Shown one piece after another: positions 5,545-33,012 of a DNA stretch of 64,000 nt. The DNA lies in the IMG/VR virus record IMGVR_UViG_3300017917_003388, positions 32,001-96,000 of that record; one strand, given 5' to 3'. A program made the translations under genes and the position numbers. Position 1 is the stretch's first letter, and each line of letters starts with the position of its first letter. Below the pieces are notes generated by a model. It had not been told where the DNA came from and searched no databases. It was given only the letters and a program-made list of their open reading frames with translations. Source of the stretch: a virus.

Positions 5545-6360
5545 ATATATCCATATGCTGTTTTTCTTTTTCCATGGCAACATTCATTTATTGCTGCTGA
5601 GCCTTTAGGTTTATTTATTGTTATTGCGGCTTCTGTTTGTGATTTATATTTTTTTATGAAATTACCTTCTAAATCAAATTGTAAGACTGGTTTAGATTTA
5701 TTTATACTATTTTCCAATTTAAATTTTTCTGATCTGTTTTTCCCTAAATGTCCTTTGTTTGGGCTTGTTCTACCTTTATGAGCTTTTGATACTCCAGGTT
5801 TGGGAATACCCAAATGTTTTATTCTTCGTTTATAATTAGATTCTGGTGATTGTTTTTGATTTTTCTTTTTATTACTAATTTTAAGTCCAAATCCTTCTGG
5901 TTTAGGTTTTCCTTTGTTAGCCTTACTTATTTTTTGTTTAGTTTCTTTATTAATTGGTTTTCCTTTTAATTTTTCACTAGTTGAGGGTCGTTTTTGTCCT
6001 TTTCTTTTTTCTCTACTTTTTTCAATGGATTCTTTATTATGTTTAGTTAATCCACCTCCCCCATTATTCTTATTCTTTAAATCGAATCCCCAACTTCGGA
6101 ATAAACTTATATAATGTTTTTCCCAAAATTTCCATTCACCTATATTTACATAGTCAATTTCTTCAATTTTTAATTGTATTTTATTTGATTTCCATTTATG
6201 ATGACTTAATCTACGAGATATATTATTTGTTTTTCCTATATATATTGGTTTTTCTTTTTCTATTAAAACATATATATAACATTTTTCTTCTTTCATTTTA
6301 TAATAAATATTATAAAAACTATAGAGAGACCACCATATCACTTATTCTATATATTATTCT
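5507..6360. repeat. 23-bp perfect direct repeat (5507-5529 and 6338-6360) flanking the HEG
   Basis: tcacttattctatatattattct at both positions; covers the RIIYRISD codons on the minus strand. Confidence 0.9.
5529..6296 (-). mobile_element. Free-standing GIY-YIG homing endonuclease (NUMOD3/NUMOD1)
   Basis: YIYVL...IYIGKT; KPVLQFDLEGNFIK...KTAYGYIWK; flanked by 23-bp direct repeats. Confidence 0.85.
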
Positions 6361-7034
6361 CATTTTTTAACTAATGCTGAAGTTATACTTCTGAATTTAT
6401 ATTGGGGTTCTTGATTAGGATTAAATTTATTATGGATTTCAATAATATCTATATTTTCATTTAAATATCTATTTTGTTCTGGGTTCAAGTATATACTATT
6501 AAATGATTCCATTAAATAATATAAAGTTGTATTTTTTCTATTTTCATGAATATCTATATATTTCCCATATAGTGGATATCCATTATCAGCTAAAGATGTA
6601 TGTAAATCTTCTATAAAATATATCCCTTTAGATTTCAACAATGGAAATAAATAACCTAAAGTAATTTGTTGATCAAACATATGATGACTTCCATCATCTA
6701 ATATAACATCAAATTCATATCCTTTAGATATACATTCATTATAAAAATTAACAAGTTGGGAAGGTTGAGATTGATCTAATTGAAAAGTATATATTCTATC
6801 ATTATTATATTTACTTTTATCTTCAATATCTAATCCTATTATTATACTATTAGGTAAATATTCATACCACGTGTTAAGTGATTTACCATGACATACTCCT
6901 ATTTCTAATATTAGAAGGGAATTATTTTTTATAGGTTCTAAATATTTTTCATAAAACGAAGCATATGAATGTTTAGGACCTATTTCTGTACCTTTATCAG
7001 ATTGGTATTTATTAAATAAACTATTTAAATCCAT
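6360..7034 (-). CDS. Class I SAM-dependent O-methyltransferase
   Basis: LEIGVCHGKS, GLDI, ILDDGSH, IEDLH. Confidence 0.85.
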   Translation of the reverse strand: MDLNSLFNKYQSDKGTEIGPKHSYASFYEKYLEPIKNNSLLILEIGVCHGKSLNTWYEYLPNSIIIGLDIEDKSKYNNDRIYTFQLDQSQPSQLVNFYNECISKGYEFDVILDDGSHHMFDQQITLGYLFPLLKSKGIYFIEDLHTSLADNGYPLYGKYIDIHENRKNTTLYYLMESFNSIYLNPEQNRYLNENIDIIEIHNKFNPNQEPQYKFRSITSALVKK

Positions 7035-7035
7035 T

Positions 7036-7617
7036 TTATTTACTAGCTTTTATACAAAGTGAATCAAATGTACTCAGATTATATCCAAGTTCTACAAGAT
7101 ATTCAGTTATTTTTCTTAAATTTTCACCCCCATAGAATGGTCCATCAGAATGAGCTGCTTCAAATATTATATTTCTAAAATCATATTTTGAAAAATCAAT
7201 ACTAGCTATTATATGAACATCTAATCCTTCAGCATCTATGAATAAATAATCAACATATGTTAGATTATATTTATCCATTAATTGATTAATACTTAAACAC
7301 TGAACATCCATTGATAATACAGGATATTGTTCTAAAGAAGGACTATGGTATTTAGTATGATAATAATCAAATGAACTTACTTCATAATTACTATCTTTAA
7401 GATAATACAATTTAGTATTTTTAATAGTTTCATCATTAGATATAGCTATATTTTCTATAATTGTTTTACCAATGTTTTTATATTGGGATTTCAGATCATC
7501 AATAATAAAAGGAATTGGTTCTACTAATATTAATAATTCTAAATCATCTATATTTTCATTAACAAAATCATATACATGATCCTTACCATTATTAGCACCT
7601 ATTTGTATTATTTTCAT
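7036..7617 (-). CDS. FkbM-family methyltransferase
   Basis: QIGANNG, VEP, IDAEGLD. Confidence 0.85.
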   Translation of the reverse strand: MKIIQIGANNGKDHVYDFVNENIDDLELLILVEPIPFIIDDLKSQYKNIGKTIIENIAISNDETIKNTKLYYLKDSNYEVSSFDYYHTKYHSPSLEQYPVLSMDVQCLSINQLMDKYNLTYVDYLFIDAEGLDVHIIASIDFSKYDFRNIIFEAAHSDGPFYGGENLRKITEYLVELGYNLSTFDSLCIKASK

Positions 7618-7841
7618 ATTAGTTTACTATAGTAATTATTTTGTTTTTCTTGTTTTTCTATGGTTTTCGGATGATATAATGCATATTCTTCTAATTCTGG
7701 TAAATTAGCATATGTTTTATACCCATCTAATACTTCATGTATTTTATTTTTCCATTTAATTTCAGAAGTATTTTTATAAATACGCCATTGCATATCACTC
7801 CATTGAATAATTGGTTTGTAGTATTTTACTTTAATTTTCAT
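7614..7841 (-). CDS. C-terminal fragment of a split GT2 glycosyltransferase
   Basis: DMQWRIYKN...WKNKIHEVL...LYHPK is the usual continuation of the GT2 at 8541-9080. Confidence 0.75.
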   Translation of the reverse strand: MKIKVKYYKPIIQWSDMQWRIYKNTSEIKWKNKIHEVLDGYKTYANLPELEEYALYHPKTIEKQEKQNNYYSKLI

Positions 7842-7857
7842 AATTGAATATAATAAA

Positions 7858-8511
7858 TTAATTTTTGTATCTCCAAATATAGCCCCCAGCTGATTTATTT
7901 ACTCCGTTATTTCTGGCGTTCCCAGCGATTACGGATGGGTTAATTTTTAATTCAAAACTAGCATTTTTAACACTTTCCCATTCTTTAATAAGGTTTCCTT
8001 GTTTATCATACTGTAAAACAGGTTTAGAGTTCCTTTTAATTAATTCTTTCACAAAGGTTTCATTTCTTTTTTTTCCTTTATTGATTTTACTAATTTTTTC
8101 TCCAAATCCTTTAGGCTTAGGTTTAGAATTAGCTTTACCTATTTTTTTATTTCGTTCTTCACTTTTAATTTTATCTCCAAATCCTTTAGGTTTAGGTTTA
8201 TTTTTAGTAAAATTGTTCCATTTCTTTTTTATATATTCATATTCTCTAGAAGAAACAATGTATTTCGTTTTTTTATTTTTATTTATAGACATTAAAAATA
8301 AAGCATACCATAACTTTTGATTGTTTGGATAAATTTCACAAAGTAATTTATGACATAAAAAGTGTTCTCGTGCTGTTAGTTCTACTAAATTTTCTTCTTC
8401 ATCCAAACCACCCATACATCTTGGTATGATATGGTGGTTTTCTTTATAGTCTTCTAATTTACGAGTTTTAGCACGTTCTATAATTTGGTTGTAAATTTTT
8501 ATATATTCCAT
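7858..8511 (-). mobile_element. Free-standing HNH homing endonuclease (NUMOD3/NUMOD1)
   Basis: ENHHIIPRCMGG...NLVELTAREHFLCH; C-terminal NUMOD1. Confidence 0.85.
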
Positions 8512-16080: not shown

Positions 16081-16659
16081 TTAATTGTTTATTTCTGGTT
16101 TTTTATAATATTTCCATACTTCATCTAATTGTGAAATATCCTTAACCCACATTATCCAATCATCTGGGTTTATTTCTTCTTCAATTACATCTATATAAAA
16201 TGTTTTAGGGGTGAATGGAAATCCTTTTATTTCTAATGAAGAACTAATTCTATTTTTATCATTTATTGCATCTTCTCTACTTAAATATAAAGGACCAGTC
16301 CATGTAGTCCCATTAGGGCATACTTTAACTATTGCTGAATTATATGTTATAATATTATTATTTTTAAATAACCCAGATTCTCTTTTATTTTGATACATAT
16401 TTTCACCCCCCCAAAGCCCGCTAATATCTACCCATTCATCATCTTCTCCAGTAATAGGTTGTAGAGGTTTAAATAAGGCTAATTTTTCAAATATACTAAT
16501 AACAATATTTGCAGACATTCCTGAATGACCCTGGTTGGAAAATACATCTATTAATTCTAATACTGCTTTTCCCGTAGCTCCTCCATAAAAATCTCCAGTA
16601 TCATCTAATAATCCAGCCATTTTTAATTCTAGGGTTGCAAAATCTTTTAAATTACCCAT
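16081..16659 (-). CDS. Hypothetical phage protein
   Basis: ORF track; FSNQGHSGMSA. Confidence 0.65.
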   Translation of the reverse strand: MGNLKDFATLELKMAGLLDDTGDFYGGATGKAVLELIDVFSNQGHSGMSANIVISIFEKLALFKPLQPITGEDDEWVDISGLWGGENMYQNKRESGLFKNNNIITYNSAIVKVCPNGTTWTGPLYLSREDAINDKNRISSSLEIKGFPFTPKTFYIDVIEEEINPDDWIMWVKDISQLDEVWKYYKKPEINN

Positions 16660-17774: not shown

Positions 17775-19394
17775 TTAATACATTTGCATTTCAGGTTTTT
17801 TATCTTCATTGTTTTTTTCAACAATTGCTGATTCAGTTAATAATATTAAACCAGCTACAGATGCTGCATTTTCTATAGCATTACGTGTTACTTTTGCTGG
17901 ATCTATTATTCCTGCTTCTTTCATATTGACAAAAGTTTCAGTTCTTATATTGTATCCTACCCAATTATCAGGTGTGTTTGTTAATCCACTTACTAATCCG
18001 TAACATTCTCCTTCACTATATCCAGCATTTGTTAATATTTTCATAAATGGTGAAGCACATGCTTCATAAACTATTGATTTTCCTATATTAAAATCATCTG
18101 AGTTATCTTTTGATTTAGTAATAGCTTCACTAGAATATAATAATGCCATTCCTCCTCCTGGAACAATTCCTTCTTCTAATGCTGCTTTGGTTGCATGCAA
18201 TGCATCGTCCACACGATCTTTCTTCTCTTTAATTTCTAATTCTGAATTTCCCCCAACATGAACTATAGCTACACCTCCTATAAATTTAGCTAAACGTTCT
18301 TGTAATTTCTCTTTTTCATAAGGAACTACAGATTTATCAATTTGAGATTGTAATTCTAAAATTCTTGTTTCTATTTTATCTGAATTTCCTTTTCCATCAA
18401 TAATTGTAGTTTGATCTTTAGTAATTGTAACTAAACGAGATTTACCAAACCAATCCCATGAAAATTTGTCTAATTTCATCCCTTTTTCATTTGAAAATAC
18501 TTCCCCACCAGTCATTATGGCTATATCTTCAAGAATTAATTTACGTCGTTCCCCAAAATCTGGGGCTTTAACAGCTGCTACCTTTAATGTGCCTCTCATT
18601 TTATTAACAATAAGAGTTGACAATACTTCTCCATCAATATCTTCAGCAATAATCAATAATGGTTTTCCAGTTCCTGATACATGCTCCAATACTGGAAGTA
18701 AGTCTTTGACTTGGGTAAATTTACGATCTGCTATCAATATAAATGGATCTTCTAAAGTACAAGTCATATCATTATTGTTGGTTACAAAAAAGTGAGATTT
18801 ATATCCTCTATCAAATTGCATCCCTTCTACAGTTTCAAGATATGTTTCTCCAGTTTTAGATTCTTCAATAGTAATTACTCCTTCTCTACCTACTTTATCC
18901 ATAGCTGTAGATATTAATTTACCAATTTCTGGATCATTATTAGCTGAAATTGTAGCTATTTGTTCAATTTGGTTTTCAGATGATATATCTTCCACTATAT
19001 TTTCTCTCATATAGTTTACTACTTCTTTAACAGCTTCATCAATACCTCGTTTTATATCTACAGCATTTGAACCTTTATCAATAAATGAAATTCCTTTATT
19101 AATCATATTTTGTGCTAAAAGAGTTGAAGTTGTTGTACCGTCTCCAGCATTGTTAGCTGTTTTTATAGATGCTTGTTTTATCATTTGAGCTCCTAATTCT
19201 TCAAAAGGATCTTCTAAATCTGAAATTTGTTTTGCTACTGATACTCCATCTTTTGTGGATTTAATTTCTCCAAATTCAGAATATATAACATTTCTTCCGT
19301 TAGGACCCAGAGTTGATGTAACAGCATTTGCTACTTTATCTATACCTGATATTATTTTTTTTCTAACTGATGAACCAAATTCTACTATTTTCAT
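17775..19394 (-). CDS. groL: Chaperonin GroEL
   Basis: [30 protein letters not shown]. Confidence 0.95.
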
Positions 19395-19425
19395 AAATTT
19401 TATTTTTAATTTTGTTTAAATTTTA

Positions 19426-19710
19426 TTATTCTATAATTGATAATACAAGAGTTTCATTACATACCCAATATTCTTGATTATCTTCTTCTACTTTTACAGG
19501 ACCTATAGGTGGTAATATCACTTTTTGTCCTTCTTTTAAGGAAGTATTAATAAAAGTACCATTAATTGAAAAATGGCCAGGACCTACAGATACAATTGTT
19601 CCTCTTAACCCTACTTCTTTTCCAGAATCAGGAACTATTATTGAACCATATTGTTTCTCATTTTCCTCTTGGGGTTTTACTATTATATTATTATGTGTCG
19701 CTCGTAACAT
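19426..19710 (-). CDS. groS: Co-chaperonin GroES
   Basis: GSIIVPD...GTIVSVGPG; adjacent to groL. Confidence 0.9.
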   Translation of the reverse strand: MLRATHNNIIVKPQEENEKQYGSIIVPDSGKEVGLRGTIVSVGPGHFSINGTFINTSLKEGQKVILPPIGPVKVEEDNQEYWVCNETLVLSIIE

Positions 19711-19723
19711 ATGTTTAAGTTTA

Positions 19724-19960
19724 TTAATTAGTTTTTTCTTCTATTAAATTATTTTCTTCTATTATTTGTGCATCGTCTATTTTATTTACAAAATAATATT
19801 TATGTTGTTTTTTTAACACTGTATCACAACCTAAATATTTTCTATATTCTTGTATTTCATCTTCATGTATTGTTTCTTCTTTAATAATTCTGTTAACAAT
19901 ATATAAGTTGTTTTTATAATTAATTATTATTTTATTCATTTCAAACATCTTTTTTAACAA
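19724..19960 (-). CDS. Hypothetical protein
   Basis: ORF track. Confidence 0.6.
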   Translation of the reverse strand: MLKKMFEMNKIIINYKNNLYIVNRIIKEETIHEDEIQEYRKYLGCDTVLKKQHKYYFVNKIDDAQIIEENNLIEEKTN

Positions 19961-20717
19961 TATAATATGTGCTACTTATATTACCTACATTAAATGAAAG
20001 TTTTAATAATCCTTCTAAATTTATATCCATATATGCCGATTCTGCATCTTTATTTACATTTAATATTTCTTTAAATAAATCAGAATTAAATCCTAACTTA
20101 AAATCAGACATGGGATCAATAAATGATTCTGATAAATTAATTGTTGAAAGATTATCTTTTATAAAATAACTAACTTTATTAGAATATTCTATATCTCCAC
20201 CAAATATTAATTCCAAACTATATTCAGATGAAAGTTCAATATCTGAATTACATTTTATCATTACTGTAGAACTATCATCTAATGCTGATTTTGCTTTTAT
20301 AAGAGATTGAATTATTTCTTTGTTTAGAATTGTTTTCAAATTATACTCTTCAGGACCATTATATTTTCCTGCTTTAGGAATTGTGATAGTATCAGCTAAA
20401 GTATATGAAACATTAAATTGATCATCAAATATATTTAATTTACTATATATATTACCATGTTTGGTTAAATCAAGATATACATCATTATTCATAATTGATA
20501 TAAGCTTATTTAATTGAGAAGTATTAAATATACCTATATTTGAATCACACAGATTAAAATTATTATGAGAAATAATACCTACCATTTCCCTGTTGGGAGA
20601 AGTAATTTTAATATTCAAATTTTTATTTTCTATATTCCATTCAACTGATTCTATTAATCCATTTAAATAATATTTATTTATAAGAGACTGAAATTCTGGT
20701 TTTTTGATTAGAAACAT
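19941..20717 (-). CDS. DNA polymerase sliding clamp (gp45/PCNA-like)
   Basis: Size, beta-rich pattern, INLEGLLKLSF...STYYIV ending, replication context. Confidence 0.65.
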   Translation of the reverse strand: MFLIKKPEFQSLINKYYLNGLIESVEWNIENKNLNIKITSPNREMVGIISHNNFNLCDSNIGIFNTSQLNKLISIMNNDVYLDLTKHGNIYSKLNIFDDQFNVSYTLADTITIPKAGKYNGPEEYNLKTILNKEIIQSLIKAKSALDDSSTVMIKCNSDIELSSEYSLELIFGGDIEYSNKVSYFIKDNLSTINLSESFIDPMSDFKLGFNSDLFKEILNVNKDAESAYMDINLEGLLKLSFNVGNISSTYYIVKKDV

Positions 20718-20906
20718 ATGGTTTTTTAATTTTAATTTAAATATAAAATAAATAATTTTATAATCCCAATTATAGTAAAGAAGGAATATCTTGAAGATTA
20801 TTAGCTAATTTTACATAGATTTGTGTTTCAACAAAATTTATATTTTTATTCATATAATTTATTAATTAATTAGAGAGTATTACGTCTAAGTATACGTTGT
20901 AGGCAA

Positions 20907-21134
20907 TTAGTTTGCTTTCTGTACTGCGTCTACCATTCCTTCAAGGCAATTATCACAGCAAGTCGGTTTAGCATCATCATTGCAATATTCGCAAACTAAC
21001 TGTTCGCTTCGCCCTACAACAGCGTGTTTACGCAATGCTTCTGCATACTCTTCTGCAAAATTCATAGCCATTTCTAATGTCCAATTCCTTGTTTCAACCA
21101 TTCGTGTTGATTTGTAATAATCTTTTGCTGTCAT
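20907..21134 (-). CDS. Cassette A hypothetical protein (MTAKDYY..., Cys-rich tail)
   Basis: ORF track; likely start at the ATG at 21134. Confidence 0.6.
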   Translation of the reverse strand: MTAKDYYKSTRMVETRNWTLEMAMNFAEEYAEALRKHAVVGRSEQLVCEYCNDDAKPTCCDNCLEGMVDAVQKAN

Positions 21135-21190
21135 TCTATTTAAGTTTTTAGTTGTTGAATCGCACTGCGTAAACACGCAAAACGTTAGCT
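21013..21190 (+). repeat. attC-like site 1 (long loop)
   Basis: CCTACAAC-A-GCGTGTTTACGCA ... TGCGTAAACACGC-AAAAC-GTTAGCT; 13-bp perfect arms at 21022-21034 and 21166-21178. Confidence 0.7.
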
Positions 21191-21394
21191 TCAATTGTCT
21201 AACCACCGCACACCTTTACCATCAAAAACATAAAATTCCTCATCTGAATTTACGTTTTTAAATTTCATCCCCCAACCAACATTTGTTAAGTCTGCACCCA
21301 TGCAAATTGCTGTTGCTTGGTAATGCGGATGGTTTTTATCAATTATCATTGCTTTTTTACCATCGAATTTTGTGTCTTGATGTTTCTGCTCCAT
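21191..21394 (-). CDS. Cassette B hypothetical protein
   Basis: ORF track; lies between GTTAGCTT and AAGCTAAC. Confidence 0.65.
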   Translation of the reverse strand: MEQKHQDTKFDGKKAMIIDKNHPHYQATAICMGADLTNVGWGMKFKNVNSDEEFYVFDGKGVRWLDN

Positions 21395-21434
21395 TTTATG
21401 TTTTTTATTAATTTAATCCAACGCAAGGAAACTA

Positions 21435-21518
21435 AAGCTAACAGCACCTACCAGCAATAGCTGCATAAAGCTATCGCACTACCAAAGCTACTGCAATGGT
21501 AGCTGCAAAACGTTATAT
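21435..21518 (+). repeat. attC-like site 2
   Basis: AAGCTAAC...CTACCAGCAATAGCT...AGCTACTGCAATGGTAG...AAAAC-GTTATAT imperfect palindrome. Confidence 0.75.
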
Positions 21519-21533
21519 TTAATTTAAAAATTT

Positions 21534-21647
21534 TTATGGATAGTATTGTTTATACCCCATCCATAAAAATATTATTATCGAACCTACCAACACTATTGCG
21601 AGTATTACATCTATTATTTGTCTGAAACTACCTTTGTAATCATCCAT
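21534..21647 (-). CDS. Cassette C 37-aa single-pass membrane peptide
   Basis: Manual translation MDDYKGSFRQIIDVILAIVLVGSIIIFLWMGYKQYYP. Confidence 0.55.
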   Translation of the reverse strand: MDDYKGSFRQIIDVILAIVLVGSIIIFLWMGYKQYYP

Positions 21648-21713
21648 GTTATTTGTATAAAAATTTTTGATATTAAATATAACAAAGAATATATGTAATA
21701 AATTTTTGTTTTC

Positions 21714-21849
21714 CTAATCTTTAATTCCTAAATCTTTCTTTAATTTTTCAAAAGACGATTGATCTACATGATATTTACACAAATGTGGTTTCTTAGGAGG
21801 AAGATAATTAGGATCACCCTTACGAATTTGTGGTTGTTTTTTTTTTCAT
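21714..21849 (-). pseudogene. Small ORF frameshifted in an A10 tract
   Basis: With A9 it would read MKKKQPQIRKGDPNYLPPKKPHLCKYHVDQSSFEKLKKDLGIKD. Confidence 0.4.
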
Positions 21850-21850
21850 T

Positions 21851-24436
21851 CTAAAATGTAAAAAATTTATTTACATTGGGATTTAATGATGGAAATTCCC
21901 AAGATAGATCATCATACAATGATTTTAATTTATTTGCTAACAACGATTCAAATATTTCCTCTATATTTATATATGTTTTAACAAATTCTTCAATTTCTGC
22001 AGGAATTTGGGCATTTGGTAAACCAATTGTTTCTAAATTATATGGGTTTTTCTTTAAATTAATAATGAATATCTTATCACCCTCAATAATAGATTCATAT
22101 TTTTTATCTAATTCTTTAAATTTAAGTAAATCATTATAACGTACTGCTGCTTTTGTATTACTTGGGGCTTTTAATTTAAATGAACTAAATATATCCCCTG
22201 TTCTAGCTGGTATCTGATATGCTGATATTTGTTTTACCCCCGTAGGTTTACCTAATTGTCTAGGATCTAGTGTTTTCAATGTTTTGTAAAAACCAATCAC
22301 ATCATTATCTATTTCGAATTTGGGTTTACCAAATAATATATTTTTAATAAAATTTTCTCCAAATTCTTTAAATAATTTATTCATATTGGACTTCATTAAT
22401 TCAAGTCCTTTCATATCTAGTTCTTCTACTGCAACACCTTCTTTGTTGGTAACATACATCGCATAACGACGTTTACCTGTTGTAAATACACCAGCACAAA
22501 TTACCTCTTGTTTTAATTGGAAATAATGAGTACCTGGTTTAATGTTGAATAAATTTTTACAAATAGTATCTAAATTAGCGTTTGATTCGTTTTGGATCTC
22601 AATAGCTAATTCTAGTATTTTATCATTTTTATCTTCAGGTTTAAGATTTAGAAATCTATGTTTAAGTAAATCCCCTAATACTATAAACATTGAATCAGTA
22701 TCTGAAAGACAAATGTGTTGTTTTTCTATTTTTAATTCAGTGTTTATTTTATTGTTTACAAAATTAATTGATTCACAAGTTAATCTTTGACCTGAGTTAG
22801 TGATAGCAGCACTACAAATTAAATATCCATCAGTGTATCTCCACCCGTTGATAGCAAAAGTCCCATAAAGTGCATTTTGGAGGATTTTAAAACTATGTTG
22901 ATATAAATCGTATAACTTATAGTTGGTCCAATCTTCGGCTTTACCTGCTATTTTCTTTAAACCACGATAATGTTCTCGTTTTTCAAACCAACCTTCTAGA
23001 ATTTTAGCAACTATGCTCTTTTCATCGGTTCTAAACATAGTTCCGGAAGCAGCAATTGTATATTCGTTTTTCTCAATTATATCAATTAAATCACCTATTT
23101 TAATAGTTGTAGATTTAAGTGTATAATTTACTTTATTTAACTTTTCAATAGTAATTATTTCATTAGGATCACGTTCTTTAAGTTTTTCTAATGAATGGTT
23201 TTGTTCATAAGTTGGATTGTGATCTACTTTAATCCTACCCACTAATGTTTCAATACCTAAATTCAATGATTTAATAATTGAAGGATATAGAGATGTAAAG
23301 TCCAAGTCAATTACATCAAAATATAGACCTGGAATTGGTTCTAATAAATATCCTCCAGCATAGCTTTCTTTAGTATTTTTTAGTATTGGATTATGAGTGG
23401 TAGGTTTATTTGGTGAAACAATACCTTCACGTTTAAGATATTTTAATATAGCACCCTCATTCATTACAGTATTGTAATAAATACTTTCATAAGGTATATT
23501 ACAAATATGTGAAATCATGATAGTTAACTCAATAAATTTAAGTTTTTCTTCTAATTTTTCAATAATTTCAACGTCTCGCAAGTTATATTCAATAAACGCA
23601 TTTAAATCATTTTTAAATAATGTGTTTAAATTACCTTCATATTCGATTTTACCTAATTCTACATATTTAATTCCAATATCTCCTAATTTATATGATGGTT
23701 CTTCCTTCATAATATATTTTTTATGAAGCAACATATAATCTAAGTGATTAACTCCACCAATTCGAATTTGAATCCCACCCGTAAATTCTGAGTAATCGAT
23801 TTTTCTAATTGGAGACATTCTTAGTAACTCATCAAGACCTACTATTTTCATAAGTCTAAAGTATAAATAAGGAATATCAAAATAAGCACTATTCCATCCA
23901 ATGATAATAGTTGGATCTAGTTCTTCAAATTTATCTAGAAATCGTTTTATTAATTCTTTTTCAGAACCACAAGGGATAATATGTTTACCATCTTGATTTG
24001 TTTCTTGTATTTCTTTACTTTTATCTACAATAAAACATATTTTTTGTTTTGTAGTTACATCTATTAAAGCAATAGAAGTAATAGGCATTGGGGCAGCCTT
24101 AATATATTCTGGTGTAAGTGCTCCCCCAATTTCGATCTCAATATCCAGATATAAAACATTATGCCAAGATGGAACAACATCATCAAATTTATAATAAAGT
24201 TCCCTCAATATAAGTAGTTCCTTATTAATATCCTTTTCTAATAAATTAGGATCTTCTTTATTGTATTTTTTAGTAGGTACAGCATATCCACCTGTTAAAA
24301 TAGGTTGAGCACCCTCTTCCCATTTATTAACACGTTTCCAATATGTTTGTTGATATTGAAATTGTAACCACCCTTTCACATCATCGCGTAAATGATATGT
24401 ATAATCACTGTAATCAAAATAGACTGATTGATACAA
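21851..24436 (-). CDS. Family B DNA polymerase
   Basis: DIE exonuclease, DFTSLYPS, KILQNALYG, SDTDS. Confidence 0.95.
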   Translation of the reverse strand: MYQSVYFDYSDYTYHLRDDVKGWLQFQYQQTYWKRVNKWEEGAQPILTGGYAVPTKKYNKEDPNLLEKDINKELLILRELYYKFDDVVPSWHNVLYLDIEIEIGGALTPEYIKAAPMPITSIALIDVTTKQKICFIVDKSKEIQETNQDGKHIIPCGSEKELIKRFLDKFEELDPTIIIGWNSAYFDIPYLYFRLMKIVGLDELLRMSPIRKIDYSEFTGGIQIRIGGVNHLDYMLLHKKYIMKEEPSYKLGDIGIKYVELGKIEYEGNLNTLFKNDLNAFIEYNLRDVEIIEKLEEKLKFIELTIMISHICNIPYESIYYNTVMNEGAILKYLKREGIVSPNKPTTHNPILKNTKESYAGGYLLEPIPGLYFDVIDLDFTSLYPSIIKSLNLGIETLVGRIKVDHNPTYEQNHSLEKLKERDPNEIITIEKLNKVNYTLKSTTIKIGDLIDIIEKNEYTIAASGTMFRTDEKSIVAKILEGWFEKREHYRGLKKIAGKAEDWTNYKLYDLYQHSFKILQNALYGTFAINGWRYTDGYLICSAAITNSGQRLTCESINFVNNKINTELKIEKQHICLSDTDSMFIVLGDLLKHRFLNLKPEDKNDKILELAIEIQNESNANLDTICKNLFNIKPGTHYFQLKQEVICAGVFTTGKRRYAMYVTNKEGVAVEELDMKGLELMKSNMNKLFKEFGENFIKNILFGKPKFEIDNDVIGFYKTLKTLDPRQLGKPTGVKQISAYQIPARTGDIFSSFKLKAPSNTKAAVRYNDLLKFKELDKKYESIIEGDKIFIINLKKNPYNLETIGLPNAQIPAEIEEFVKTYINIEEIFESLLANKLKSLYDDLSWEFPSLNPNVNKFFTF

Positions 24437-25070: not shown

Positions 25071-25304
25071 ATGAAAAATTATTGGGCTCCTACTCCAAAA
25101 AAATGGAGAAAAATAGGAGATGCTTTATTAGCATCTTCAACTGTAGCATCCATAGGTGGAATGTGGCAATTTGAACATCTAAGAGAAATATTTACAGTTG
25201 GTCAAATAAAATGGTTAATTATAAGTCCAATTATTTTGGGTGTTATTGGTAAATTTTTAACTAACTTATTCACTGATTCTGAATCAGATGATATAAAACC
25301 ATAA
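25071..25304 (+). CDS. Putative holin
   Basis: Two hydrophobic segments; directly upstream of the lysin. Confidence 0.6.
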   Translation: MKNYWAPTPKKWRKIGDALLASSTVASIGGMWQFEHLREIFTVGQIKWLIISPIILGVIGKFLTNLFTDSESDDIKP

Positions 25305-25308
25305 TATT

Positions 25309-25926
25309 ATGAGTTTAAAACATTTTCAATCAAAAATAGGTGTTCAAGCAGATGGAGATTTTGGTCCAGGAACATTTTTAGCCGCAATGAAATATTTAAA
25401 ACTTACTCCAATTAGAGCAGCTCATTTTTTTGGTCAAACATCACATGAAACTAATGAATTTTTAATATTTACTGAAAATTTAAATTATTCTGAATCCGGT
25501 TTGAAGACTACTTTTGGTAAATATTTCCCTGGTAACTTAGCATCACAATATGCTCGTCAACCTGAAAAAATTGCTAATAGAGTATATGCTAATAGAATGG
25601 GGAATGGAAATGAAAATTCGGGGGATGGATGGAAATTTAGAGGTAGAGGTGCTATTCAATTAACAGGTAGAGAAAATTATTTAGCATTTTCTAAATATAT
25701 AAATAAACCCGAAATAATGGTTAATCCAGATTTAGTATCTAATGAGTATGCTTTTGAATCAGCATTGTTTTTCTTTGATAAAAATAAATTATGGAATATA
25801 TGTGATGGTGGAATTGACAAAAACACAATATTAAAATTAACTCAAAGGATAAATGGAGGTACCAATGGTTTATCGGATCGTGAGTCTAAAACTATAAAAT
25901 ATTATAGATATTATACTTTAGGTTAG
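25309..25926 (+). CDS. GH19 endolysin with an N-terminal peptidoglycan-binding-like motif
   Basis: DGDFGPGT; HET...ENLNYS; FRGRGAIQLTGRENY; INGGTNG. Confidence 0.9.
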   Translation: MSLKHFQSKIGVQADGDFGPGTFLAAMKYLKLTPIRAAHFFGQTSHETNEFLIFTENLNYSESGLKTTFGKYFPGNLASQYARQPEKIANRVYANRMGNGNENSGDGWKFRGRGAIQLTGRENYLAFSKYINKPEIMVNPDLVSNEYAFESALFFFDKNKLWNICDGGIDKNTILKLTQRINGGTNGLSDRESKTIKYYRYYTLG

Positions 25927-25952
25927 TTTGATAATGGTACTTTAATTGTTGT
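25923..25952 (-). pseudogene. Orphaned former thyA 3' end (TTIKVPLSN*)
   Basis: Matches the present thyA end PTIKLPLSN* on the other side of the HEG. Confidence 0.8.
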
Positions 25953-25962
25953 AATATAATAA

Positions 25963-26742
25963 TTATTCTTTGTATTTCCAAACATAATCAAAAGCGGTTT
26001 TTTGTCTTCCTTTTAAACAAGCTGTTATACATGAATTGTTGATTGATTTTCCAAAATATTCAAGAGCATCTTTAATAGATTTAAACTCCTGAATTATATT
26101 ATTTTGTTGATCAAGTTGAAGAATGGGTTTACTATTTTTTTCTCCTATTAATTTATGATCAATCCTTGATTTAATTAAATTTCCAAATCCTGGGGGTTTA
26201 GGTTTAGAATTAGCTTTACTTATTTTTTGCTTAGTTTCCTCAGAGATAGGTATTCCTTTATTACTATGAACTTTACTATGTTTTTTACCTTTATTTCCTT
26301 TGCTAATTTTTTCTTTCATTTCACCACTCATAAATCCATCAGGTTTAGGTTTACCTTTATTACCATGGATTCTTCCTTCAGGTATATTATATTTTTGTCC
26401 TGTTTTAGCTTGAACTATTTTTTGTTTTTGCTCTTCAGTAAATTTATTTCCTAAAGCAATAATCTCCCCTCCAATACTTTTGTTTAGTAATATACCATCA
26501 GGTTCTATTCCTTTTCTTCCATATTTAGCTATAAATTCCATCTCAAGAGAACATGCTTCTTCTTTAGTAAGATTTTCTTTAATTATATCTACTATAGGTT
26601 CACCATGTTTTTTAATATAATTCTTATAATGAGAATTCCTTCCTGAGATAAAATCCCATGCTCTTTTATTTGCCCCTATTCCAACATAGAATAACTCTTT
26701 AGTTAGTGGGTTTTTATGATGGTATAAATAATAATTTTCCAT
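25963..26742 (-). mobile_element. Free-standing GIY-YIG-like homing endonuclease (NUMOD3/NUMOD1)
   Basis: YLYHH...FYVGIG...RA; KPILQLD...KTAFDYVWKY. Confidence 0.85.
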
Positions 26743-26795
26743 AAGTCTATCAATATTCCGTTGATTATAAATATATGAAAAATATATTTTTTACA

Positions 26796-27908
26796 CTAAT
26801 TTGATAATGGAAGTTTAATAGTAGGATGATATTGATAACCAATTAATTCAAAATCACTAACTTTATAATGAGATATGTCATCAATATTACTATATATTTT
26901 TAATGTAGGTAATTCAAATGGTTTTCTATTTAATTGTTCCTTAATAGGTTCTACATGATCTAAGTATAAATGTACATCTCCTAAATTTCCTATTAATTCA
27001 TCTGGGATCATATTAACTTGTTTAGCAATCATTTCTAATAATAAACCATAAGATGCTATATTAAAACCTAATCCTAACCCAGTATCTACTGAACGTTGAT
27101 TCCACATTAATGATATTGCTCTACGAGGAATATTTATATCATCTAATTGCTTATGTAATTGTTCATCTTCATCAACTTTCGTAAAAAACTTTATGTTTAA
27201 TGATACTTCATAATGATTAGAACCAGCTATAAACCCTCTTTCTTGTAAACTTAATTCTCTAGTATAGAACTGGAAAAAGTTATGACATGGTCTTAATATC
27301 ATTTCATCCAACTCACCAACATTCCAGGCAGATACAATTATACCTCTATCATCTGGATTTGTTTTAAGTTTTTCAAGAGCTTCTTTAATTTGGTCAACAG
27401 ATTTTCTACTTGGGATTTCACCCATATACGACACCAATTCACCATATTCCCAACTTCTCCATTGCTTACCATAAATTGGCCCCAATTCACCCCACGTCTT
27501 AGCAAAGTCATCATCTGTTTTGATTTTGTTGATGAATTCTTCTTGTGTATATAAAGTTGCACCAGAATGACCATTATCTAATAAAACAGGTTTTAACCAT
27601 TTAGGATTAGAATTAAATTGATTATGTGTTATATAGTTCTTATAAGCATCACCATCCCAAATATGACAATTGTTATCAACAAGGAATTTGATGTTGGTAT
27701 CACCACGTAAAAACCATAGTAGTTCTGTTACAATTTGTTTCCAACCCATCTTTTTGGTTGTAAGAAGTGGAAACCCTTCACTCATTTTATGACGGATTTG
27801 TCTACCGAATACTGATAGGGTTCCAGTACCAGTTCTGTCTTTCTTTTCTACTCCATTGTCAAGAATGTCTTGAAGGAGTGCTGTATATGTTTTATCTAGG
27901 TTGTTCAT
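26796..27908 (-). CDS. thyA: Thymidylate synthase
   Basis: DRTGTGT, LGPIYGKQWR, RPCH, QRSVD...FNIASY. Confidence 0.95.
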   Translation of the reverse strand: MNNLDKTYTALLQDILDNGVEKKDRTGTGTLSVFGRQIRHKMSEGFPLLTTKKMGWKQIVTELLWFLRGDTNIKFLVDNNCHIWDGDAYKNYITHNQFNSNPKWLKPVLLDNGHSGATLYTQEEFINKIKTDDDFAKTWGELGPIYGKQWRSWEYGELVSYMGEIPSRKSVDQIKEALEKLKTNPDDRGIIVSAWNVGELDEMILRPCHNFFQFYTRELSLQERGFIAGSNHYEVSLNIKFFTKVDEDEQLHKQLDDINIPRRAISLMWNQRSVDTGLGLGFNIASYGLLLEMIAKQVNMIPDELIGNLGDVHLYLDHVEPIKEQLNRKPFELPTLKIYSNIDDISHYKVSDFELIGYQYHPTIKLPLSN

Positions 27909-28071
27909 TTTTTAAATAATATCTTTCACATTCAGGTTGAATACATCCAATAGACCGACCAAAAAATACAAATCTTTTTATTTCGGTAGATTTACATATT
28001 GGACAAGTTCCATAAGTACCTTCCGTTATTATTCTAGTTAGTGGTGGTTTTGGTTTATCTAGGTTGTTCAT
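27892..28071 (-). CDS. 59-aa zinc-ribbon protein that begins with the thyA start sequence
   Basis: Manual translation MNNLDKPKPPLTRIITEGTYGTCPICKSTEIKRFVFFGRSIGCIQPECERYYLKNEQPR. Confidence 0.65.
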   Translation of the reverse strand: MNNLDKPKPPLTRIITEGTYGTCPICKSTEIKRFVFFGRSIGCIQPECERYYLKNEQPR

Positions 28072-28256
28072 TCTTTAATTAATTTACTTCTTAAATCCTT
28101 AAGTATTATATACCAATTATTGGCTTGTTCTGTATTATATTTCATATCACGTTTTTCACCATAGGTTACTTTCATACTATAATGTTGAAAATTATTCCAA
28201 GTTGTTTTGTATTCTTGGAGGTGGTCTGTGTATGTTTTATCTAGATTGTTACTCAT
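28068..28256 (-). CDS. Hypothetical protein with a thyA-like N-terminus
   Basis: MSNNLDKTYTDHLQ versus ThyA MNNLDKTYTALLQ. Confidence 0.6.
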   Translation of the reverse strand: MSNNLDKTYTDHLQEYKTTWNNFQHYSMKVTYGEKRDMKYNTEQANNWYIILKDLRSKLIKE

Positions 28257-28270
28257 AACTTTCTATTGTT

Positions 28271-28417
28271 TTATTCGTTGTCGTTGATAATACTTTTAAG
28301 TTTTTTAATTTCTGCAATTACCTCATCACCCAATTCAATTTTAGACATCATTACTAGGTCCACTACTTGATTTTGTAGTAATTCAATTAGTGCGTCTTTC
28401 GCTTGTTCTTTATTCAT
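28271..28417 (-). CDS. Small 48-aa hypothetical protein
   Basis: Manual translation MNKEQAKDALIELLQNQVVDLVMMSKIELGDEVIAEIKKLKSIINDNE. Confidence 0.6.
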   Translation of the reverse strand: MNKEQAKDALIELLQNQVVDLVMMSKIELGDEVIAEIKKLKSIINDNE

Positions 28418-28435
28418 ATAAAATATATCAAATAT

Positions 28436-28861
28436 TTATTCCTTTGGTTTAATTATTATTTCTTCATCATTGTAATATACATGTGTTAGACCACGAATAT
28501 TATCATCTTTCCATCTAATAGGTCCTATTTTCATATTTAAAAACTCCTCGGAACTCATTTGTTCCTTCAATCGAATGTAGAATACAAGACAATGACCTAT
28601 ATCTTCAATTAGCGATTCGAAATTTTCTCTTGTAACAAGTCTTGCCAAATCTTCAATATTCCATATACGATGATAAATCTCTGTCGCAGAATTATCTACT
28701 AAAAGAGATTTATCTAATTCTTCTATATTATTTTCTAAAATAGTAGCAATTGCTCCAACTATTTCTTTTGGTCCAAATGAAGTTTTCCAATCACATTCTT
28801 CTGTAACGTTATCTACCCACTCCATATAGAGTTTATGTAGTTTTTCTCTATCAATTTCCAT
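28436..28861 (-). CDS. Hypothetical protein
   Basis: ORF track. Confidence 0.6.
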   Translation of the reverse strand: MEIDREKLHKLYMEWVDNVTEECDWKTSFGPKEIVGAIATILENNIEELDKSLLVDNSATEIYHRIWNIEDLARLVTRENFESLIEDIGHCLVFYIRLKEQMSSEEFLNMKIGPIRWKDDNIRGLTHVYYNDEEIIIKPKE

Positions 28862-28872
28862 ATGTATTTAAA

Positions 28873-29106
28873 TCACATTAATTTAGCATATTTAACAATA
28901 CCTGACATTTTTTTATTTTCAACAATGAAAAACTCAACTTCAGGATTAACATCAATCCTTGAATCCAAATTATCAAAATTACGTTCTAATTCTAATAAAT
29001 ATTCCACATCTTCTGAAATTAAGGGTAATTGTTTATCTGAATTATCAATATCCTTATATTTAACAGACCATATTTTATATCTATCTCTAACTAATATTCC
29101 TATCAT
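28873..29106 (-). CDS. Hypothetical protein
   Basis: ORF track. Confidence 0.55.
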   Translation of the reverse strand: MIGILVRDRYKIWSVKYKDIDNSDKQLPLISEDVEYLLELERNFDNLDSRIDVNPEVEFFIVENKKMSGIVKYAKLM

Positions 29107-29107
29107 T

Positions 29108-29746
29108 TTATTTTAATTGGGCTCCATTTAATGTTATAGCATGGAGAAATTCTTCACGAATTAAATTACCAGGTTCCATAAATACACCACTGAATTTATT
29201 GGTGGTCATAGTTGAAGTAGGATGCTTAATACCTCGATTTGAACAACACATATGTTTTGATGAAATACTAACTGCTACTGATTTACATTCTAGTTTATCT
29301 GTTAAAAAATCATGAATTTGTTGAGTTAATGATTCTTGCATTTGGGGGCGACGGGCAAACCAATCTACTACTCTATTTAATTTAGATAAACCAACTACTT
29401 TTTCCCCAGGAACATATGCTACTGAAGCATACCCTGTGAATGGAAGATTATGATGAGCACAAAGTGATACAACAGGAATACCAGTTTGAATTACTACACC
29501 AGTATAATTTTCTTCATTAGGAAACACTGTCATTGATGGTTCTTCTGTAATTGAGCCTAGTACTAGATCTTTTAACCAGGCTTTAGCTACACGACGAGGA
29601 GTGTCAATAGTTTGAGGATCAGCAGTATAATCAAACCCCATTGAATTTAAAAAGTTTCCATAATGTAGAGCTGCTTCTTTAATCATACTCTCAATTTCCT
29701 CAGGAGTACGAGGTCTGTTCTCATTTGCTTTTTGAATATATTTCAT
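29108..29746 (-). CDS. folE: GTP cyclohydrolase I
   Basis: TPRRVAK, SLCAHHNLPF, GLSKLNR, QE.LT, HMC...RG. Confidence 0.95.
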   Translation of the reverse strand: MKYIQKANENRPRTPEEIESMIKEAALHYGNFLNSMGFDYTADPQTIDTPRRVAKAWLKDLVLGSITEEPSMTVFPNEENYTGVVIQTGIPVVSLCAHHNLPFTGYASVAYVPGEKVVGLSKLNRVVDWFARRPQMQESLTQQIHDFLTDKLECKSVAVSISSKHMCCSNRGIKHPTSTMTTNKFSGVFMEPGNLIREEFLHAITLNGAQLK

Positions 29747-29749
29747 TTA

Positions 29750-30172
29750 TTATTTGTTTAATTGTGTTAAAATTGAGTTTAATCCTTTTAATTCATTTTT
29801 ATTAGAATGATCAGATATAGAAGATTGATATTTGGATATAAATCTATTAATAATTCTAAACATTAATTTACTAAAAAATGGATCCACATATGTTTCCATA
29901 AATAAATTATGATTAGACATTTTAATCATATTTCCTTTAATTATCACCGAATATTCCTTATCTTCGGTTTGCATATATACTTTTTTAATATTAGAATCCA
30001 AAGCTTCAGGATTAACTAATATTGATGATTTAGGATTAGATAATATTTTTACAACTATATTTTTTATAAGTTGTTCATTAGGATTTAATTTTCTATTACC
30101 ATTATAAGATTTTCTCATGCGGCTTTTTCTACGAAGATAAGACCACTTAAAAAACAATTTGACTTTTTTCAT
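29750..30172 (-). CDS. Hypothetical protein
   Basis: ORF track. Confidence 0.6.
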   Translation of the reverse strand: MKKVKLFFKWSYLRRKSRMRKSYNGNRKLNPNEQLIKNIVVKILSNPKSSILVNPEALDSNIKKVYMQTEDKEYSVIIKGNMIKMSNHNLFMETYVDPFFSKLMFRIINRFISKYQSSISDHSNKNELKGLNSILTQLNK

Positions 30173-30230
30173 ATAACTTATTTTGAGTTTGTTTTATAAA
30201 TATATAAAAAATAAAATGTAATCCTAGTTT

Positions 30231-31178
30231 TTAATCCGTAAAAAGTTCAACATTTATTGGATCACAACATGGTAACTCATTTACATATAAAGTATCACTA
30301 ATTTCAAATATAGGACATGTATATAAATAATTGACATTTATTATAGATGGAGCTGATATATTTTCAGATATATTATATCCTGTATTTATTAATACACCAT
30401 TTATAAACCATTGAGGTAAATTAATCGGACCATTAGGTGTAAATCTCCAAGCTTCTGGAGTATTGATAGTATACACACTTGTATTTCTGTTTACAGGAAA
30501 TGAAGCAATAGTACCTAAATTATTTTGTATACCTAAACAAGCTCTTCCTCCATTCCATGTATTACATGTTTGTTTTTTATTAACATATATGTCAATTATA
30601 TTAGTAAATTCATGTAATACTATTTGAAATGTAGATATTAAATTATTACATTGGAAATGTGGGATTTGATAAAAGCTTACAATTAACTTTCTATACGGAG
30701 ATACTCCTATTACACCATATCTAACAGTACCCCCAATTGATGGATCAATATCATGATATAAACCTATCATTGATCTTGGGAAGTTTGCAACATTTGTTGG
30801 TATAGATGCATTAAAAGCCCAAGGAGAAAACTGATTAGCATATGTTAGATTAAAACTTATAATACCATTAGTACTAATTACATATTTATTATAAGTTTGC
30901 CCATAAAAACAAAAATTAAATGGTAAATTTATTATTTGAGACCATACATCATCGATAGGGATGTTATATAAAGTACCGGTATTATAAGGATAAGGATTAT
31001 AAGGGATTGGTGATACTAAATAGGATGTAGTATTATATGTTATTGTATCTAAATCACAAGTTAAATTGAGAGAAATGTCACCACATATAGTAGTGTCATT
31101 TCCTCCCAATATATTAATTGTGGGTGTTTGTGAAAATAATAAATTAGATATTAATAGTAGTCCTAATAATAGTCTCAT
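30231..31178 (-). CDS. Secreted Bacteroidota-type surface/adhesin-like protein
   Basis: Signal peptide ending LFSQ; DDVWSQIINLPFNFCFYGQTY...STNG.ISF; EAWRFTP. Confidence 0.65.
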   Translation of the reverse strand: MRLLLGLLLISNLLFSQTPTINILGGNDTTICGDISLNLTCDLDTITYNTTSYLVSPIPYNPYPYNTGTLYNIPIDDVWSQIINLPFNFCFYGQTYNKYVISTNGIISFNLTYANQFSPWAFNASIPTNVANFPRSMIGLYHDIDPSIGGTVRYGVIGVSPYRKLIVSFYQIPHFQCNNLISTFQIVLHEFTNIIDIYVNKKQTCNTWNGGRACLGIQNNLGTIASFPVNRNTSVYTINTPEAWRFTPNGPINLPQWFINGVLINTGYNISENISAPSIINVNYLYTCPIFEISDTLYVNELPCCDPINVELFTD

Positions 31179-31357
31179 GGTTTTGGAATTCTTGATTCTT
31201 TAATACCCTTTAATTCTATAAGTGAATTTAATATAGATATAGACATGGGATTTCTATATAATTTATTTGATAACTCCATAAATTTAATTTGATCATCTAA
31301 TTTAGTTGAACTTATTGAAGGTAGTTCATTTAATAATTTTGACATTTGTTCTTCCAT
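31175..31357 (-). CDS. Hypothetical protein
   Basis: ORF track. Confidence 0.55.
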   Translation of the reverse strand: MEEQMSKLLNELPSISSTKLDDQIKFMELSNKLYRNPMSISILNSLIELKGIKESRIPKP

Positions 31358-31360
31358 AAT

Positions 31361-32071
31361 TTATACATTTAATGTTTTTAATTTTTCTTCAATATTGTCA
31401 TTATAAGATAATATAAGTAAATCAATATTGTTATCCAAACAATATTGCTTTTTTATTTCATCTCTTTGTTTAAGGTATTCAAATCCTTTTTCACCTCCAA
31501 AAAATGTAACTGGTTTATAATGTTGTAAACCATTATACTCAATTAACATATTATGTTTGGGTAAATAAAAATCATAATAATGATATGAATCTTTAATTTT
31601 TACTTGATATTGATAGATATATTCTATATTATTTCTATTTAACCAAATACCTACTTGTTCTTCTCCTTTATATATATTACATTCAGGACAGTTACTTTTT
31701 GCATATAAATGAATAGATGGTTTTTGAAAAAAAGATCCATGTTTTGAACATATAATTTCTACTTCCTGATAAAGATTTTGGTAGTTTATTTTAGAGTAAT
31801 CATATATGTCATTATGGATCTTTTTTGCTCTTTCTAAGAATTGTTCTTTTGTTATTTGTTTAGGATTAGGTCTTCGATTTTGACATTTTAAACACCCAAA
31901 TCCTTTATATAATACTGATGGTGGTTTGTTTTCTATATTTCCACAGTTTTTACATATCAATTTAACATTAGAATGAGCATCTTTATAAGATAATAAAGAA
32001 TAATCAAATTTATCTATACCAAATTTAGATTCTATTCGTTTTATGAAATCGTCTTGAGTTAACTTATGCAT
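31361..32071 (-). mobile_element. Free-standing endonuclease (zinc-binding repeats plus PD-(D/E)XK/DUF559-like domain)
   Basis: Two YDYS...C..C/H...C..C repeats; YDFYLP...IEYNGLQHY. Confidence 0.8.
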
Positions 32072-32106
32072 ATATTTTTATTATAAATATATGGAATAAA
32101 ACTCTT

Positions 32107-33012
32107 TTATACGTTAATTACACGATCCCAAGCTGAGATATGTAATCTTGTTAATCCTCTAAACATATATTTCTTACTCATTTCTAATACAAATTGAGTA
32201 CGTTCATGGAAGTCAGTTTGACTATCTAAACCTGGCATACAAACAATGTTTTTAAGTGGTATTTTAAATGGTTCAATAAAATCACGGAATATTTCCTTAA
32301 CATCATCTTCAGTTGAAATAACAAACTTAAATTGATAGTTATGGTGTTCCATAATACGTTGAATAGCTGCAGGAACTATTCTTTGTTTCTCAGTCATACC
32401 TGAGTTGGATAGCTTAGGTGAACAGTTGATTTGGTCTAGTAGACTAAATAGTGGATGGTCAATTATGATTGTACCATTAGTTTCTATTTCGTAATAAGGT
32501 CCGTTTTTAACATAGATAAAATTATTATAATCTTTTTTATGACCATGTAATGACGGATAATCTTCATATCCTACTATGTCAATCCCTTGATTGTCAATCC
32601 AATATTTAGTAAAATTAACAATGGCTTCTTGATGTCCTTTAATTGTAGGTTCTCCACCTGTCCAAATGATATGGATAGTACCATTTCTAATCTGTTCATA
32701 GATACCCTGCTCTTTCCATTGATCAATTAGGTATTGGAAATCTTTTTCTTCACCTCTCCATAACCATTGAGAAGTACTATCACAAGTCCAAGTTGCTTTA
32801 CCTTCTAACTCTAAATCGCCTTTGAATATTTCGCCATCTTCTAATGATTTTTCTTTAGCTAATTGGTTAGTAAACTTACGAGACATACCGCAAGTTAAGT
32901 TACAAATACCTAAACGAATGAAATATGATGGTATACCTGTTGAAAAACCTTCCCCTTGGACTGAAAAAAAATCACTTGATATGAGTAACTTGTTTGGATC
33001 TATTTTTGACAT
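32107..33012 (-). CDS. queE: 7-carboxy-7-deazaguanine synthase (radical SAM)
   Basis: FFSVQGEG, RLGICNLTC...CDS, TGGEP, IETNGT, SPKLSNSG. Confidence 0.9.
   Translation of the reverse strand: MSKIDPNKLLISSDFFSVQGEGFSTGIPSYFIRLGICNLTCGMSRKFTNQLAKEKSLEDGEIFKGDLELEGKATWTCDSTSQWLWRGEEKDFQYLIDQWKEQGIYEQIRNGTIHIIWTGGEPTIKGHQEAIVNFTKYWIDNQGIDIVGYEDYPSLHGHKKDYNNFIYVKNGPYYEIETNGTIIIDHPLFSLLDQINCSPKLSNSGMTEKQRIVPAAIQRIMEHHNYQFKFVISTEDDVKEIFRDFIEPFKIPLKNIVCMPGLDSQTDFHERTQFVLEMSKKYMFRGLTRLHISAWDRVINV

Follow-up and report, generated by a model that had tools for sequence, protein, structure and literature searches.

The replication region of this phage carries what is probably (we put it at roughly 80%) a decayed copy of a phage-encoded, integron-like platform, with its recombinase deleted in frame. 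The original prediction had described an integron-like array of attC cassettes; the array, the pairing of its R'' and R' boxes and its G|TT edges all held up, whereas canonical IntI and attC and a complete third unit did not. The window (the whole 64,000-nucleotide stretch of DNA that was analysed) comes from a phage genome of 174.7 kb, which is complete and has terminal repeats, and the array is located between the genes for a family B DNA polymerase and a sliding clamp (the polB-clamp interval; Table 1). By sequence alone, the clamp gave a weak match (E 0.14).

Table 1 Features of the array and of the genes on either side, in window coordinates
Feature	Position	Strand	Description
Sliding clamp (PCNA fold)	19941..20717	-	Left flank; predicted model against PCNA structures, E ~1e-8
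Recombinase remnant, 27 codons	20770..20853	-	First 9 residues joined in frame to last 18; ~710 bp deleted
attI-like leader	20854..20898	+	7-base box 20884-20890, 5-base spacer 20891-20895, crossover G|TT 20896-20898
Cassette 1, 288 bp	20897..21184	+	Body 20896-21020 plus hairpin 1
ORF 1, 75 aa	20907..21134	-	No assigned function; chimera of hairpin-coded head and body-coded Cys-rich tail
Hairpin 1, attC-like, 177 nt	21014..21190	+	Model score 56.8
Cassette 2, 328 bp	21185..21512	+	Body 21184-21442 plus hairpin 2
ORF 2, 67 aa	21191..21394	-	No assigned function
Hairpin 2, attC-like, 83 nt	21436..21518	+	Common AAC-AGCACC...GCAAAAC-GTT type; model score 43.7
Cassette 3, truncated	21513..21702	+	Body, then only the left arm of a short-type hairpin
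ORF 3, 37 aa	21534..21647	-	One hydrophobic stretch
Family B DNA polymerase	21851..24436	-	Right flank; phrog_262, E 1.5e-137

Two complete cassettes and one truncated cassette follow an attI-like leader

The stretch consists of an attI-like leader, ending in G|TT at 20896, followed by two complete cassettes and one truncated cassette. All six predicted boxes lie where they had been placed, and both the window boxes and family-wide hairpin parsing bear out that the R'' and R' that pair belong to one cassette. The two boxes matched 7/7 within a cassette, a number for which the parser selects, and matched in full within a hairpin at 3/59 sites. In cassette 2 the complementarity covers 8 contiguous bases and 11/14 in all. 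Comparison of the repeats confirmed for both hairpins that the first two AAC ends open palindromes with a common GCAAAAC-GTTA close. Hairpin 1 has a perfect 13-bp stem with 1 versus 5 unpaired bases beside its R boxes and no extra base, and a pattern for the hairpin 2 type was matched in 100 viral stretches. As had been noted, units 1 and 2 are richer in G+C (0.385 for cassette 1 and 0.366 for cassette 2) than the genome (0.272), but unit 3, at 0.217, is not enriched. Each unit does hold one small ORF, in every case encoded by the minus strand. The start of ORF 1 lies within hairpin 1, whose loop encodes the first half of this ORF. None of the three ORFs matched PHROG, and a search for relatives of ORF 2 found none.

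A chain of three complementary 8-mer pairs, as found here, was present in 28/100 block shuffles of the AT-rich genome, and we therefore rejected the non-significant chain as sole evidence. The array is significant because its hairpins score far above shuffles. We trained a hairpin model on 59 phage sites, none of them from the window genome. It gave four sites of the phage genome scores of 44-58, whereas the maxima in shuffled sequence were 15-25; the four are hairpins 1 and 2 and two hairpins in a second array outside the window. The third AAC, which has a left arm only, scored 11.5, a value near the bottom of the range of the training sites. This arm has an 82% match to a short-type site in the related phage L151 (over 21651-21702), and neither hairpin parsing nor the model found a right arm for it. 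The body of cassette 3 has 24-nt inverted ends (21512-21535 and 21660-21683). Folding of the bottom strand, a check proposed with the original prediction, gave z-scores of -2.3 for hairpin 1 and -2.8 (-2.84) for hairpin 2, and the bottom strand was the more stable fold in 53/59 family sites. The extrahelical bases that were also to be looked for are absent, with a left-arm extra base in 0/2 window hairpins. An Rfam search returned no matching family for the hairpins, and exact-match searches of viral and metagenome contigs with the leader motif and the start of cassette 2 gave no match. A separate assembly, made from sequencing run SRR5831666, matches the interval 20869-22040 at 100% identity, which speaks against an assembly artefact.

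The second array (C1:28638-30010 of the phage genome, ~2 kb ahead of the window start) includes a further leader copy together with the initial 22 codons of the recombinase. Its hairpins are at 29089-29178 and 29402-29492, the latter resembling a hybrid of two hairpin types, and the non-matching ends of its first unit suggest a deletion. Repeats at 97.9-99.7 kb and 104.4-104.9 kb of the genome were considered as cassettes and rejected, since they are coding repeats. An AT-rich intergenic motif of 55-72 nt, present in many copies (C1:3773, 5844, 6547, 156730, 164136, 171010 and others), is probably a phage promoter. Genes for GroEL and GroES lie between the clamp and the clamp loader (window 17775-19710), an arrangement kept in relatives, and a 192-aa ORF (window 16081-16659) corresponds, by position and length only, to a gene of the related phage L101 that matches Pfam Tad3 (anti-Thoeris). 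By eye, window 25071-26742 contains two plus-strand genes resembling a holin and a glycoside-hydrolase endolysin, followed by a GIY-YIG-like endonuclease beside thymidylate synthase.

Cassettes come and go at G|TT and their genes face the insertion site

Cassette-precise gain and loss in related phages, the comparison suggested with the original prediction, supports the proposed edges at G|TT. The body of cassette 1 is 90-93% identical in L189 and L191, where identity begins exactly at C|GTT behind other hairpins. Across 29 pairs with a common cassette start, identity rose from background to 1.0 at GTT, and in pairs with shared hairpins it jumped from background to 1.0 at AAC. Near-identical hairpins had the left body in common in 20-30 pairs and the right body alone in 0 pairs; the pairs are non-independent events, and the training set overlaps the tested loci. 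This linkage of the hairpin to the left body indicates that the plus strand is the top strand and that a cassette is a body with the hairpin to its right. The opposite orientation, with the minus strand as top, is rejected by the same linkage and by the position of the leader.

Of 319 viral cassettes, 307 have their gene antisense to the top strand and thus directed at the insertion site, as are all three window ORFs, and 115 of the 319 have the gene start inside the hairpin. The small number of bacterial arrays that were scored had the same orientation as their enzyme and sense genes (4/4). The phage orientation may allow transcription of the cassettes as part of the operon around them. We also considered whether the hairpin loops contain a Bacteroidota promoter; this was unsupported, the -7 motif being un-enriched on the gene strand (28 vs 72).

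The leader resembles the simple site of attI, with its arrangement of box, spacer and GTT; in the clade of the window phage the leader ends with a 7-base box, a 5-base spacer and GTT. At 41/42 viral loci the first GTT is 32-52 nt from the recombinase start codon. The 45-base leader stands, nearly unchanged, ahead of a different first cassette in L102, identical leaders precede different first cassettes elsewhere (for example L240/242/244, L200/201 and L255/256), and the two copies within the phage genome, the second at C1:28676-28755, part directly after GTT. Judged by sequence only, the leader is thus a primary site with a G|TT crossover, close to where the integrase gene begins, as expected of attI.

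The array adjoins the scar of a recombinase that related phages keep intact

The original prediction had found no integrase in the window. No intact tyrosine or serine recombinase was found in the complete phage genome either; however, the 27-residue remnant had been missed. It lies 43 bases left of the first GTT, and its residues corresponding to 1-9 and 247-262 of the L102 enzyme (P0122) are 100% identical to that enzyme. On either side of the deletion scar, the DNA has 84% identity to L102. The presence of both ends of the L102 enzyme together with its flanking DNA indicates that the window phage once had the enzyme and lost ~710 bp of it.

Related phages were located through clamp homologs by an alignment-based locus search. 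L101, L102/103, L110/111, L149/151 and L183 have an intact tyrosine recombinase of 264-267 aa directly upstream of the clamp, preceded by small ORFs; cassettes resolved at intact loci numbered 10 in L102, 4 in L110 and about 19 in L151. In 53 relatives the polB-clamp gap is empty, at 11-57 bp. The gap is a general insertion hotspot, with only part of its variation of the cassette type; in relatives it has many other inserts, homing-endonuclease-like or other genes, without hairpins. In L143 a truncated related recombinase (7770-7900) accompanies ~8 cassettes (5000-7700) at the same site, which is a separate loss of the enzyme. The recombinases of L101 (434-1231) and L102 (4161-4955) belong to two clades with only 45% identity, yet both genes occupy one and the same place ahead of the clamp gene. 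This suggests that recombinases arrived there independently more than once or replaced one another.

The recombinase has a Phage_int_SAM_4 plus Phage_integrase layout, conserves the catalytic residues R131, K156, H215, R218, H241 and Y250, and gives its best profile match to NCBIfam NF040815. Relatives are encoded by 295 viral stretches. Hairpins accompanied 60 of 80 viral recombinase loci, some of them redundant or part of the hairpin training set, and were always on the strand opposite the enzyme (same strand 0); most of the other 20 loci were short of upstream sequence. The cultured Polaribacter phage Leef_1 (L353; MT732473 ~26000-29000) has an intact enzyme (28136-28999), leader and antisense cassettes, the enzyme being annotated only as integrase. 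Its describers took its integrases as a sign of lysogeny and did not mention integrons (PMC8776804).

Among bacteria, close relatives of the enzyme occur mainly in Bacteroidota, and we therefore infer that the host of the window phage is a member of this phylum; the nearest named polB is only 32% identical. In Bacteroidota genomes, enzyme relatives lie beside hairpins of the phage family at 14/83 loci by the model, which, being trained on phages, under-calls bacterial sites and missed an array in L185 that is visible by eye. This array (L185:6001-12800, Catalinimonas alkaloidigena) is downstream of a co-oriented recombinase, has sense genes and lies beside a phage-like lysozyme region.

Hairpins and bodies also seem to be exchanged at the AAC box

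The 75-aa ORF 1 protein had 83 matches. Its hairpin-coded head pairs with several tails and its body-coded tail with several heads, and the switch point is the Val codon formed by the R'' box (the AAC box). L192 has a copy of hairpin 1, 83% identical from AAC to GTTA, behind a different body, and in L191 body 1 is followed by a hairpin other than hairpin 1. In the collection as a whole, 24 pairs have the same body end and a different hairpin, and 58 pairs have the same long hairpin and a different body, with the break at AAC. Hairpins and cassette bodies thus seem to reassort. Hairpins shared between differing bodies occur in canonical chromosomal integrons too.

Extrahelical bases favour the bottom strand in integrons, where top-strand recombination occurs at lower rates (PMC5027507). 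Since the phage hairpins have no extrahelical bases, our preferred reading of the AAC-box switch is that it represents top-strand exchange by the enzyme. Several of the body/hairpin switches extend a few bases into the common left arm, and short-homology recombination in the common arms could be an alternative source of them.

Comparison with integrons and other known systems

The phage system resembles integrons (VchIntIA with VCR, IntI1) in that a tyrosine recombinase is head to head with a primary site and an array of AAC...GTT hairpin cassettes, with a G|TT crossover and with complementary R'' and R' boxes in each cassette. By TM-score, VchIntIA (PDB 2A3V) was the best fit to the predicted structure of the phage enzyme, with a TM of 0.76. 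In a midpoint-rooted tree with two Xer rows only, the phage enzymes group in separate clades with good support and are parted from E. coli XerC/D with support of 100/100; they fall on the IntI side, outside the IntI pair and away from XerC/D. Unlike IntI, the phage enzyme does not have the IntI-specific insertion (the I2 helix region), with 37 vs 85 residues across the gap against 2A3V and 53-54 residues between two catalytic motifs compared to 99-101 in IntI, and it scores 145-153 against the TIGR02249 cut-off of 265. The hairpins likewise depart from those of integrons: their right side exceeds the left by 3-4 unpaired bases, whereas Vibrio sites have an offset of 0, and a left-arm extra base is found in 1/59 phage family sites and in 9/14 Vibrio sites scored alike. 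R-box complementarity extends to 8-10 contiguous bases, unlike that of canonical integrons. Canonical integron genes are read away from attI from Pc, in contrast to the antisense phage genes, which often start inside the hairpin, and the phage system is moreover encoded by large phages. The recombinase that stands beside an integron array is present intact in the relatives; the window phage has only the 27-aa remnant. The phage platform would work like an integron, but falls outside the canonical class on the insertion, the hairpin geometry and the gene direction.

Qi et al. 2023 reported clusters of attC-like sites without an integrase (CALINs) in virulent phages and left the cognate enzyme for these sites unnamed; the complete phage integrons that they described had canonical IntI and were in temperate phages (PMC9892861). 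In their assay IntI1 recombined five of six phage attC sites, with P12002L_attC1 as the sole failure (PMC9892861). Our hairpin model found eight sites in Polaribacter phage P12002L, one of which is exactly P12002L_attC1. The membership of this site in the hairpin family, together with the failure of IntI1 to recombine it, provides one data point against a canonical host IntI. The eight hairpins of P12002L (L358) form two clusters, at 30009-32694 and 38880-39709, around a methyltransferase and small genes. The available text of Smyshlyaev et al. 2021 describes an 'integron-like' tyrosine recombinase subgroup with insertion-less members, for which it gives no function, substrate or cassette array, and terms the insertion essential for integron function (PMC8138268). 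The phage enzyme is like these insertion-less members, and differs from them, as far as that text goes, in having a substrate and cassette array proposed. Our literature search, of incomplete coverage, found no description of a phage-encoded integron-like platform.

A model for the platform and alternative explanations

We propose that the intact platform would comprise a gene for a 264-aa tyrosine recombinase head to head with the insertion site. At G|TT the enzyme would insert circular cassettes, each made up of a body and its right-hand hairpin, and would thereby push older cassettes away; the strand that it cuts is probably the bottom one, in folded form. Facing the insertion site, the genes would be read along the phage replication operon, such that an integron promoter would be unneeded. 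Strand choice would be looser than in integrons, so that hairpin and body would also be exchanged at the AAC box, joining new protein heads to new tails. The in-frame deletion of the recombinase would then have frozen the window array unless the enzyme is supplied in trans. The array of the window phage is probably no longer shuffled by an enzyme of its own.

The original prediction attributed the array to an IntI from the host or from outside the window. Our results contradict this, as the lineage encodes its own enzyme at the site, as a remnant here and intact in relatives, and both the enzyme and the hairpins are non-canonical. A phage-encoded enzyme, rather than a host IntI, is the likely builder, because related phages keep it intact at the same polB-clamp site with arrays.

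An insertion-less relative of the enzyme encoded by the host might instead build the phage arrays in trans, the phage copy being a passenger or having some other role. The Bacteroidota relatives, some of them beside the same hairpins, are what this explanation would draw on, as are the arrays that persist in phages without the enzyme (the window genome and P12002L), and for the deleted window phage in particular a supply in trans could apply. As a general account we find it improbable, since the phage enzymes form clades of their own with catalytic residues intact and stand at a fixed distance from their own leader, and the bacterial loci scored, unlike those of the phages, are co-oriented with sense genes.

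A second alternative compares the array to the PeSL promoter-stem-loop cassettes of T4-like phages, in which small genes parted by hairpin modules are shuffled among relatives. Homologous recombination would then exchange the hairpins, as modules for expression or as repeats of the MITE/REP kind, and the recombinase would be a lysogeny or dimer-resolution enzyme. We know of no recombinase or R-box chain for PeSL cassettes. Small genes separated by hairpins are common to both systems, hairpin families recur, many genes begin inside a hairpin, and the Leef_1 enzyme was itself interpreted as a lysogeny integrase. Yet the phage junctions, unlike those of PeSL, are site-precise with minimal homology, having merely 4-5 bases in common; the two ends of each cassette are complementary while its neighbours differ, and the hairpin gene strand is not enriched in the Bacteroidota -7 motif. 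Leef_1 also possesses a second integrase (PMC8776804). We consider it unlikely that such modules account for the array.

Canonical attC cassettes handled by a canonical host IntI, as first envisaged, are less plausible still. The R boxes, the chain complementarity and the attI-like simple site do fit integron rules, and IntI1 proved able to recombine the five other phage sites of Qi et al.; the deviant hairpin geometry, the refractory family member P12002L_attC1 and the non-canonical enzyme remnant adjoining the array all argue against it. Chance inverted repeats in AT-rich DNA, for all that shuffled sequence so often yields 8-mer chains, can be set aside almost entirely in view of the independent model scores, the homologous cassettes with precise edges and the adjacent enzyme remnant.

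Implications for phage and integron biology

In the prevailing view integrons belong to bacteria and archaea, and owe their function to the I2 insertion and the extrahelical bases. The joint origin of these two features has been described as a chicken-and-egg paradox (Escudero et al. 2016, PMC4792948). We tentatively suggest, with rather more doubt than confidence, that large phages may encode a proto-integron, in which an I2-less integrase would recombine either strand of hairpins without extra bases, and hairpins (carrying start codons and heads) and bodies (carrying tails) would reassort separately to build new small proteins. Such a system would be a living stage before the co-evolution of IntI and attC. 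Being widespread, with a relative of the enzyme in each of those 295 viral stretches, and having neither feature, it would make the question of that origin testable.

The window locus is a decayed example, and its deletion scar ties the array to the enzyme. It adds empty, full and decayed states at one syntenic site, along with a published failure of IntI1, and cultured Leef_1 with its intact copy offers a test system. If the platform works as proposed, phages of the virulent type would operate a gene-capture platform of their own, recombination would explain the origin of many small orphan proteins in phages, and current searches for integrons would overlook a large class in Bacteroidota and the phages that infect them.
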